This document shows positions 1 to 3,000 of a stretch of DNA of 8,577 bases, piece by piece. The position numbers are program-made. Source of the DNA: a virus (Duplodnaviria > Heunggongvirae > Uroviricota > Caudoviricetes); IMG/VR virus record IMGVR_UViG_2711768070_000012, positions 1-8,577 of that record; one strand, written 5' to 3'. How positions within the stretch are numbered: position 1 is the stretch's first letter; every line of letters starts with the position of its first letter.

Positions 1-3000
1 CGGGAAGAAGCATCCGTTATCGCCGGACTGCCAAACGTCAGCGAGCTGGTTGATATGGTTTACGAGTATTGCCGGAAGCGAGGCCTGTATCCGGATGCAG
101 AGTCTTATCCGTGGAAATCGAACGCGCACTACTGGCTGGTTACCAACCTGTACCAGAACATGCGGGCCAATGCGCTGACTGACGCGGAATTACGGCGCAA
201 GGCCGCAGATGAGCTTGTCCATATGACTGCGAGAATTAACCGTGGTGAGGTGATTCCTGAACCAGTAAAACAACTTCCTGTCATGGGCGGCAGACCTCTA
301 AATCATGTTCAGGCTCTGGCGAAGATCGCAGAAATTAAAGCTAAGTTCGGACTGAAAGGAGCAAGTGTATGACGGGCAAAGAGGCAATTATTCATTACCT
401 GGGGACGCATAATAGCTTCTGTGCGCCGGACGTTGCCGCGCTAACAGGCGCAACCGTAACCAGTATAAATCAGGCTGCGGCTAAAATGGCGCGGGCAGGA
501 ATCCTTGTCATTGATGGTAAGGTCTGGCGAACGGTGTATTACCGGTTTGCTACCAGGGAAGAACGGGAAGGAAAGGTGAGCACGAACCTGATTTTTAAGG
601 AGTGTCGCCAGAGTGCCGCGATGAAACGGGTATTGGCGGTATATGGAGTTAAAAGATGACCATCTACATCACTGAGCTAATAACAGGCCTGCTGGTAATC
701 GCAGGCCTTTTTATTTGGGGGAGAGGGAAGTGAACGATAGCTACCGACAGTTTGAAAACTGGTGGTCAAAAGACAAAAGCCAGTTCACGGGAGACGATGA
801 ATTAAAAGAGTTTGCCTGGGTGATATGGCAGGCATCGCGCTCTGCTATTGAACTGGATATCGACTGGCCCGAATCGAATGACGACTTTTGGAAAGATGGT
901 GAAGAAGGTGCTTATGCGATGGGTTATGAGGATGGGCGTGACAAAACGGTAATTGCAGTAATGAAAGCCATCAGGGCCGCAGGAATCAAAGAAAAGAATT
1001 TCGATTAAGCAAATATCACTTCAATAAATCGCTTTTAAGGCATCACAATCGCTCTGTACGTTTGAGGAGGTTTTAAGAAATGAGTACGATAGCTGAGCTT
1101 GTCAGGGCTAATTTTCGTGAAGAGTTGGTGCGTTGGTATCGGTATCGTTCATCGTCCAGTTTGCCGCTTGATGAGTTGTATGAGCATTCACCTGCCGCAC
1201 GACGCTATCCGCGTGACCGTGTTCTTCGACGGTTGTTCAAACTCAACAATGAGTTTCAGCGCAACAGAATTATCCGGAGTCTGGATTTTAAGTGAAGGAG
1301 TGAGCATGAGCGACCTATCATTAACCCAGCCAAAGCTAAAAGAATGTCCGTTTTGCGGCGGTAATGCTCGTCTGTGGGTTGAGGCCGGAATAAATATTGA
1401 TGTGTGGGGCTATGCAGAATGTGACCTCTGTGAAGCCAGGGGGGCATGGGCACCATCAGTTGCTGCGGCGGCTGAAAAATGGAACCGGAGAGCAGGAGAT
1501 GAAGCAAACCTTTCTGCTTCGCAACGAAGCAATCAGAAATAACGCCATAGACGCCATTCTCTCACTACCCATCGACGACAAGTCACCCCACGAAGTCCAC
1601 GTTAAAGAACCCAAGCGCAGCAAAGCGCAGAATGACCGTATGTGGCCGATGCTGAACGATGTTTCGCGTCAGGTGCTATGGCATGGTCAACGGCTGGCGC
1701 CGGAAGACTGGAAAGACCTGTTCACTGCCCTGTGGCTTAAGACCAAAAAACTGGAGCAACGAAGTGTGCCTGGTATCGACGGTGGCGTTGTCATGCTTGG
1801 CGTGCGTACCAGCAAAATGCGGAAGGCCAGCATGACTGAGCTTATCGAAATCATGTTCTGGTTCGGCTCAGAGCGCAACGTGCGGTGGAGTGATGACTCC
1901 TGGCGAGAGTATGAATGGTCACAACGAAAAGGGAGAGCTGCATGACTATCAAATCAAATACGCCATCACACGACAAGGACTGCTGGCAAACGCCGCTTTG
2001 GCTTTTTGATGCACTGGATATTGAGTTTGGATTCTGGCTGGATTCAGCTGCGAGCGACAAAAATGCTCTGTGCGCTCACTGGCTAACTGAGGCCGACGAC
2101 GCGCTAAATTCTGAGTGGATAAGCCACGGTGCAATCTGGAATAACCCACCGTACAGCAATATCAGGCCGTGGGTGGAAAAAGCCGCTGAGCAGTGCATAC
2201 AACAGCGACAGACGGTAGTGATGCTTGTGCCAGAGGATATGTCAGTCGGATGGTTCAGCAAGGCTCTGGAGAGTGTCGACGAAGTTCGCATTATCACTGA
2301 TGGACGGATTAATTTTATCGAACCATCGACAGGGCTGGAGAAGAAGGGAAACAGCAAAGGCTCCATGCTGCTGATTTGGCGACCGTTCATCAGTCCTCGA
2401 CGAATGTTTACTACTGTATCCAAAGCGGCATTGATGGCGATCGGGCAGGGCGTCAGGATGGCGGCATGAGGCGACAGCGAAGAAGTATCACCGACATCAT
2501 CTGCGAAAACTGCAAATACCTTCCAACGAAACGCTCCAGAAATAAACGCAAGCCAATCCCAAAAGAATCTGACGTAAAAACCTTCAACTACACGGCTCAC
2601 CTGTGGGATATCCGGTGGCTAAGACATCGTGCGAGGAAAACAAGGTGATTGACGCGATGATTTATTCGGGGCTATATTCCTCACGCGCCAGCAAAATCTG
2701 GCGTCGGGATTAGCACCCCGGATATCGAAACGGTGCATAACCGCGCTGGCGGTTTTTTTATGCGCTAAGCACAGTCACATTCGCGATTTATGGCGGGCTG
2801 TGTGGGGGAGCCGAAAGGCTCGCCGGATGTTTCGACCGGTAGTGCTAACCCCGCACAGTTCGCCACCACGATGATTAGCACCTGACGGTGGCGAGGTAAA
2901 AATTATCGAAACGCGAGGTCATTATGGCTGTTCAAATTTCTGTCGAAAACCTTTCCCCTGTTACCTATAACCAGATCCCCGTAATTACTACTGAACTGTT

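Follow-up and report, generated by a model that had tools for sequence, protein, structure and literature searches.

In the virus record IMGVR_UViG_2711768070_000012 of IMG/VR, assigned to the Caudoviricetes, we analysed positions 1 to 8,577 (hereafter, the window), with emphasis on the segment 1306–2469, in which a Lar-family gene and a gene for an orphan N6-adenine methyltransferase of the Dam type lie on either side of the recombination mediator gene ninB. In our reading, to which we give a probability of about 0.8, this segment belongs to the delayed-early rightward (nin) operon of an Escherichia coli prophage that is lambdoid and mosaic, and its three known genes are cassettes that can be exchanged separately. 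The Lar-like, NinB and Dam genes are ordinary and have been annotated before; thus, the observation made in an earlier note on this DNA is correct, but it is not new. Our reading draws on the identities of the genes, their near-identity with genes of published phages, the NPPY motif of the methyltransferase, the start/stop overlaps and the mosaic joints, all of which were observed directly. From the end of P to ninE the genes form a chain on one strand, as established from the listing of open reading frames (ORFs) and by direct reading, and the features referred to below are the following:

55–372, + strand: C-terminus of P (ORF listing and direct reading)
369–659, + strand: Ren-like gene (ORF listing and direct reading)
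685–708, + strand: terminator hairpin with a T-run, identical to lambda 40596–40619 and upstream of all genes discussed
715–1008, + strand: phrog_343 gene (ORF listing)
1080–1295, + strand: DUF7301 gene, 71 amino acids (aa), equivalent to H0102 of VT2-Sakai
1306–1542, + strand: Lar-family zinc-ribbon gene, 78 aa (Pfam, NCBIfam, PHROGs)
1345–1431, + strand: zinc-ribbon core CxxC...CxxC (Cys14, 17, 39 and 42) of the Lar-like protein (direct reading)
1439–1444, + strand: run of six G (G6) within the Lar-like gene; G7 in the 933W reference and in two IMG/VR contigs
1499–1542, + strand: out-of-frame overlap of 44 nucleotides (nt) between the 3' end of the Lar-like gene and the 5' end of ninB
1499–1945, + strand: ninB/orf recombination mediator, 148 aa (Pfam NinB)
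1942–1945, + strand: ATGA stop-start overlap of ninB and dam, with a GGGAG Shine-Dalgarno sequence at 1931–1935
1942–2469, + strand: orphan phage N6-adenine methyltransferase (Dam), 175 aa (PF05869/TIGR01712)
2143–2154, + strand: catalytic NPPY codons, Dam residues 68–71 (direct reading)
2466–2469, + strand: ATGA stop-start overlap of dam and ninE
2466–2648, + strand: ninE, 60 aa (Pfam NinE)

Relatives of the segment in phages and E. coli genomes

For the slightly longer segment 1080–2700, 420 phage records gave matches. Its full length aligns with VT2-Sakai (AP000422, 16127–17747) at 99.1% identity, and the same full-length identity was found for Stx2 II, for the PA-series O157 phages and for many Stx1a and Stx2a phages. 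The VT2-Sakai record contains the same five coding sequences, designated H0102, H0103, H0104 (NinB-like), dam (H0105) and ninE, with the same 44-nt and 4-nt overlaps, and its dam is annotated as "similar to 933W L0094, HP1 Orf13 and T1 M.T1". The Lar-like and NinE proteins are 100% identical to their VT2-Sakai counterparts. The Lar-like gene corresponds to H0103, which has the same 44-nt overlap with ninB, and to Orf7 of 933W (in RefSeq, "Lar family restriction alleviation protein"); in the 933W reference, however, one additional G puts the gene out of frame. M.EcoVT2Dam (H0105 of VT2-Sakai) and L0094 of 933W resemble the methyltransferase of the window in size (175 aa), in the slot between ninB and ninE and in the ATGA overlaps. 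The surroundings differ from those in VT2-Sakai, in that P, ren, ninG, the phosphatase gene and Q of the window are of the lambda type. Among 5426 complete E. coli genomes, part of the segment 1080–2700 is present in 2213 and at least 80% of it in 486; RefSeq gives the same five-gene arrangement, under the same names, in 486 of the 5426.

Position in a lambda-type nin operon

The DNA of the window is about 96% identical to that of lambda at 1–731 (P, ren and the tR2 region), 2473–2653 (ninE), 4398–5003 (ninG) and 5009–6360 (ninI and Q), and is unrelated to lambda between these blocks. The order of the genes and the style of their overlaps are those of the lambda ninR region, and the P, ren, ninE, ninG, ninI and Q proteins are 91–98% identical to those of lambda. 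In lambda, the order is ren, a gap, ninB, ninC, ninD, ninE, ninF, ninG, ninH, ninI and Q. In the window, in contrast, the phrog_343, DUF7301 and Lar-like genes are added between ren and ninB; dam takes the place of ninC and ninD, with homology to lambda returning at 2473, at the start of ninE; a region of isrK/C4 RNA and two antirepressor-type genes take the place of ninF; and ninH is absent. The ninB gene (ATG at 1499, TGA at 1943–1945) codes for a protein that matches the Pfam NinB family with 165 bits and is 44% identical to lambda NinB, and the product of ninE (ATG at 2466) matches the Pfam NinE family with 148 bits.

The hairpin at 685–708 has its identical counterpart between ren and ninB of lambda, and we take it to be the terminator tR2. 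The position of the genes 3' of this hairpin fits N-dependent, delayed-early expression. Transcription would start at pR and would reach the segment only after N-mediated read-through of tR2, and translation would proceed along a chain of abutting cistrons, as in the rest of the operon. The window contains five ATGA junctions (P/ren, ninB/dam, dam/ninE, ninG/phosphatase and phosphatase/Q) and one TAATG junction, so that stop-start overlaps 3' of tR2, as in a lambda-type nin operon, are present. Interlinked genes are a long-known style of the lambda ninR region. Thus, the overlaps are a trait of the whole operon and do not single out the two putative anti-restriction genes.

The earlier note had placed a Lar-family gene and an orphan Dam-type methyltransferase on either side of ninB, with the methyltransferase in the ninC/ninD slot of lambda and joined to both of its neighbours by ATGA overlaps. 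The coordinates and the family scores (see below) hold, the overlaps at 1942–1945 and 2466–2469 are real as judged by direct reading, and the comparison with lambda agrees with the replacement of ninC and ninD. The coupling to the nin genes that the note proposed finds its counterpart in the ATGA junctions of ninB/dam and dam/ninE, but not at the Lar-like/ninB boundary, where the overlap is of 44 nt, in another frame, and not ATGA. Early expression, which the note had also proposed, fits the location of the genes 3' of the tR2-identical hairpin and is in line with the response of the dam gene of Phi24B to induction (PMC3342100).

The Dam methyltransferase

The dam gene extends from an ATG at 1942 to a TGA at 2467–2469. 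Its product matches Dam (PF05869) with 218.3 bits (cut-off, 28.1) and the equivalog TIGR01712, "phage N-6-adenine-methyltransferase", with 263.6 bits (cut-off, 97.05) over profile positions 1–165 of 165, and it carries NPPY at residues 68–71 as its version of the (D/N)PPY motif. No restriction endonuclease gene adjoins dam; as the neighbours are NinB and NinE, the enzyme is an orphan methyltransferase. The profile of host-type Dam enzymes, PF02086 (MethyltransfD12), was not matched, a Pfam scan at E ≤ 0.01 returning PF05869 only, and the term Dam-type therefore holds by the reported target site and not by descent. With the Dam enzymes of E. coli and T4 (alpha class, PF02086), the enzyme of the window shares the reported GATC target and the N6-adenine chemistry, but it is far smaller (175 aa) and has no sequence relationship to them in the Pfam scan. 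Judged by its sequence, it belongs to the small orphan phage Dam family of VT2-Sakai, 933W, HK97, T1 and HP1. M.EcoGII, a non-specific adenine methyltransferase of the beta class, is larger, at about 349 aa, and is described as having DPPY, a target-recognition domain in its centre and FxGxG at the C-terminus (PMC5778455); by this description, the enzyme of the window, with 175 aa and a match to PF05869 only, is not of the M.EcoGII type. A search of PDB sequences found no solved relative, and a single-sequence AlphaFold2 model had a mean predicted local distance difference test (pLDDT) score of 42.9 and was unusable for fold comparison.

Dam shares 172 of its 175 residues (98.3%) with M.EcoVT2Dam, the three differences (S9A, I60V and M173R) being conservative and outside NPPY. 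The entry for M.EcoVT2Dam in Table 3 of PMC6602927 describes an orphan enzyme, encoded by prophage VT2-Sa, with the site GATC, and cites its cloning by Radlinska and Bujnicki (2001). From the near-identity and this listing, the enzyme of the window is predicted to methylate the adenine of GATC, and the homology check for a specificity group, which the earlier note had suggested, gave a clear outcome in the GATC group (via M.EcoVT2Dam). Expression of the dam gene of Phi24B, tabulated as 100% identical to that of VT2-Sakai, has been detected at the level of the product, and the amount of its transcript shifts significantly on prophage induction (PMC3342100). GATC sites themselves are under-represented in the window, with 18 observed against 30.8 ± 5.3 expected, and there is none between 328 and 2438 (2.1 kb, from ren to dam), a gap that is not significant at the window's own site density. 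Prophages of Shiga toxin-producing E. coli also have GATC-free regions (PMC6602927).

As a working model, Dam would top up GATC methylation on fast-replicating phage DNA when the host Dam is limiting, and the fully methylated progeny would be resistant to N6-methyladenine-sensitive GATC nucleases and to MutH. Alternatively, Dam could serve the DNA metabolism or the regulation of the phage and not anti-restriction, by blocking MutH nicking or SeqA binding, or by affecting the stability of lysogeny. We consider this a real possibility, if short of an even chance. With the host Dam's own site as the listed target (PMC6602927), the enzyme would protect against few of the restriction systems of E. 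coli. In a sample of 80 Dam loci, which are near-identical, and 80 Lar-like loci drawn from IMG/VR, NinB lies directly upstream of Dam in 76 of the 77 Dam loci with enough upstream sequence, in the form of two very different alleles of this recombination mediator; this placement, however, may just mirror the conserved slot order of lambdoid phages. It has also been put forward that the phage enzyme may supplement the host Dam, which is required for stable 933W lysogeny (Riley et al., PMC3342100), and packaging of P1 requires Dam methylation (PMC12707154). The link to repair, replication or lysogeny is nevertheless hypothetical, and Dam could act in both ways; a recent review names protective as well as regulatory functions for phage orphan methyltransferases (PMC12707154).

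The Lar-like gene

The Lar-like gene starts with an ATG at 1306, 5 nt downstream of an AGGAG Shine-Dalgarno sequence (1296–1300), and stops with a TAA at 1540–1542. The earlier note had left membership in the Lar family to be decided by homology search; the 78-aa product scores above the curated cut-offs of the family, with 41.3 bits for Lar_restr_allev (PF14354; cut-off, 28.6) in Pfam and 62.3 bits for TIGR03655, "Lar family restriction alleviation protein" (cut-off, 39.6), in NCBIfam, and it matches phrog_599 in PHROGs (E = 9e-39). In a BLASTP comparison it is 36% identical to Rac Lar over 58 residues (E = 9e-10), with the CxxC pairs aligned. Rac Lar, now RalR, thus belongs to the same Pfam and TIGRFAM family, but the Lar-like protein is not its orthologue, as it scores 27.6 bits against the RalR equivalog NF007260, whose cut-off is 113. 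It also differs from Rac Lar in location, within the nin region and not beside recET, and in having a tail of 14 residues read from ninB. A RalA-like partner was not found in the window: a blastn-short search with the Rac ralA region gave 10–11-nt chance matches only, and a search for a RalA-like RNA near the Lar-like gene gave no Rfam match in 1000–2600. A PDB sequence search with the Lar-like protein gave only a weak zinc-ribbon resemblance to ribosomal protein eL43.

The Pfam Lar domain spans only residues 10–63, and residues 65–78 result from read-through into ninB, outside the domain. In one locus (L020), the Lar-like position is taken by a phrog_343-type protein whose frame continues into this ninB allele; both proteins share the stop and the tail (...SQRSNQK). 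Because the domain ends at residue 63 and the tail is shared with L020, the last 14 residues are a by-product of the cassette joint and not part of the Lar fold. The phrog_343 homologue of L020 (2224–2601) runs straight into ninB, whereas the phrog_343 gene of the window ends at 1008. This continuity in L020 suggests that the stretch with DUF7301 and the Lar-like gene (approximately 1009–1498) is an insertion relative to the L020 arrangement.

According to PMC3177214, which cites King and Murray (1995), genetic tests showed that Rac Lar counteracts EcoKI restriction and raises modification; Rac Lar is the only member of the family for which such activity is known. The analogy with Rac Lar and lambda Ral suggests that the Lar-like protein may likewise relieve type IA restriction and accelerate modification. 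The Rac lar gene, however, is now annotated as ralR, "endodeoxyribonuclease toxin", with the small RNA antitoxin RalA (PMC4041452). As the anti-restriction role of the Lar-like protein comes with the family name, and the prototype of the family is now the RalR toxin, this role is putative only. That the Lar-like protein is a DNA-damaging or toxic small protein like RalR, or that it counters a different defence, for example type IV restriction, appears unlikely. The new annotation of the prototype speaks for the former, and the Lar homologue of phage Bas63 has a conditional importance that type I systems leave unexplained (PMC11482910). Against this stand the score of the Lar-like protein far below the RalR equivalog cut-off, the failure to find a RalA-like sequence in the window and the nature of the protein, a 55-residue zinc ribbon without a recognisable nuclease site. 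A further, speculative idea, at which the Bas63 data hint, is that the Lar-like protein would guard phage DNA against a defence other than type I.

Several points weigh against our reading of the segment. In the 933W reference, a frameshift disrupts the Lar-like gene, which may thus be dispensable, and the mentions of Lar-like proteins of Stx phages that we found in the literature are at the level of annotation only. The Lar prototype has been re-described as a non-specific DNase toxin (PMC4041452), and the Bas63 homologue matters in a host-dependent manner for which type I systems do not account (PMC11482910). For Dam, the role of the phage enzymes is stated to be not well understood (PMC7556043), and as the listed site is the host's own, a benefit in a Dam+ host is hypothetical. 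Finally, translational coupling is predicted from the geometry of the genes, and each gene also has its own Shine-Dalgarno sequence.

Mosaic assortment of the cassettes

In our reading, the two putative anti-restriction genes are near each other as a result of mosaic assortment and do not form a fixed module. Among the Dam loci, homology to the window begins at 1059/1066, just upstream of DUF7301, in 20 loci, at 1498–1502, that is, at the ATG of ninB, in 10 loci, and at 1931–1937, just before the ATG of dam, in 48 loci. In the last group NinB is mostly the lambda allele, again with an ATGA junction to dam; altogether, 46 of the 80 Dam loci have a NinB of the lambda type, the joint lying just in front of the dam ATG. 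In a phage collection, 244 records have Dam at an identity of at least 95%, 183 have DUF7301 and 119 have the Lar-like gene. Phage Stx2_716 has DUF7301, an unrelated 60-aa ORF, another NinB allele, an HNH-like ORF and then dam, and its homology to the window is lost at 1313, shortly past the ATG of the Lar-like gene. DUF7301, which is thus also seen with another downstream ORF, is a separate cassette. From the differing record counts and the homology breakpoints, we conclude that each gene is its own cassette, with the joints at gene boundaries.

An HNH-like ORF of 200 aa is found between ninB and dam in some Stx2a phages (L164, which is Stx2_716, at 2799–3401, and L026 at 2831–3004); its C-terminal residues are those of lambda NinB (...KARWGDRAA). 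Since the ORF carries the end of NinB, the ATGA junction to dam is kept despite the different upstream gene.

DUF7301 and the Lar-like gene were also considered as a toxin-antitoxin pair. This was rejected in view of the 183 phage records with DUF7301 against 119 with the Lar-like gene, and is contradicted as well by the arrangement in Stx2_716.

The earlier note had gone further and suggested a counter-defence module expressed in step with the nin genes. The gene identities, the gene order, the overlaps and the replacement of ninC and ninD all stand, but a dedicated, co-regulated anti-restriction module is unsupported. That the Lar-like and Dam genes form such a module, co-selected and translationally tied to the nin genes, we regard as improbable. 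The family names of both proteins suggest anti-restriction, the genes lie in a single operon with overlapping reading frames, and NinB and Dam follow the Lar-like gene in 69 of the 71 Lar-like loci with enough downstream sequence. The reverse linkage, however, is weak, as the Lar-like gene is found at only 18 of the 77 Dam loci, 46 of the 80 have the lambda-type NinB, and more than twice as many phage records have this Dam as have the Lar-like gene (244 against 119). Moreover, the Lar-like loci are almost clonal, with 8 DNA alleles among 98 copies, and their linkage to Dam may thus reflect shared ancestry. In addition, the ATGA junctions are common to the whole operon, and the anti-restriction roles come from family names, while Dam is listed with the host site GATC (PMC6602927).

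The constant pairing is that of NinB and Dam, and not that of Lar and Dam: Dam lies directly behind two unrelated NinB alleles and is joined to them by ATGA each time. This pairing could conceivably be a working partnership, in which Dam would methylate the intermediates of Orf/Red recombination so that MutH could not nick them, an idea that we rate as a long shot.

In the 933W reference (L163) and in two IMG/VR contigs (L031 and L033), a G7 run in place of G6 at 1439–1444 shifts the frame of the Lar-like gene after the fourth Cys, and the frameshifted version no longer overlaps ninB; from the sequences, the difference could be a true slippage variant or a sequencing error. That the Lar-like ORF is currently functionless, a passenger that is dispensable or in decay, is very improbable, since, in spite of this truncation and of a narrow, almost clonal distribution, it is intact in 88 of 91 copies, with a strong Shine-Dalgarno sequence, conserved Cys pairs and a clear match to the family models.

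Neighbouring features of the window

A promoter-like site, TTGACG-18-TATATT, is present at 2649–2678, directly after the stop codon of ninE. It is followed by Rfam matches to c4-a1b1 targets (2672–2724), to isrK (2685–2759; 76.6 bits) and to C4 antisense RNA (2786–2870; 75.1 bits), and by two antirepressor-type genes, one with ORF6N/P22AR_C (2924–3601) and one with Rha/KilAC (3670–4398). The region 2649–4398 is an antisense-controlled antirepressor unit in the style of P1 immI and Gifsy isrK, located in the slot of lambda ninF.

Further downstream, the window has an island of low GC content at 6400–7600 (33–40%, against about 50% elsewhere). Within it, an ORF for a hydrophobic protein of 252 aa (6523–7281), for which Pfam gave no match, follows Q and occupies the position of stx in the Stx phages; it resembles a moron of unassigned function. 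An ORF from approximately 7790 to 8577, with DUF1737 and a SASA sialate-acetylesterase domain (NanS-p type), runs past the end of the window.

Implications

GenBank and RefSeq already contain these genes, in this order and with these overlaps and names, for VT2-Sakai, 933W, Phi24B, phages of the HK97 type and hundreds of genomes of E. coli. The cloning of the methyltransferase likewise dates from 2001, so that the segment carries little weight as a discovery. The questions of what a phage Dam does in a Dam+ host and of Lar versus RalR are both known, and the window is no easier test case for them than the published phages. If the partnership of NinB and Dam were true, it would stop mismatch repair from aborting the recombination of diverged lambdoid genomes, and would thereby promote mosaicism.

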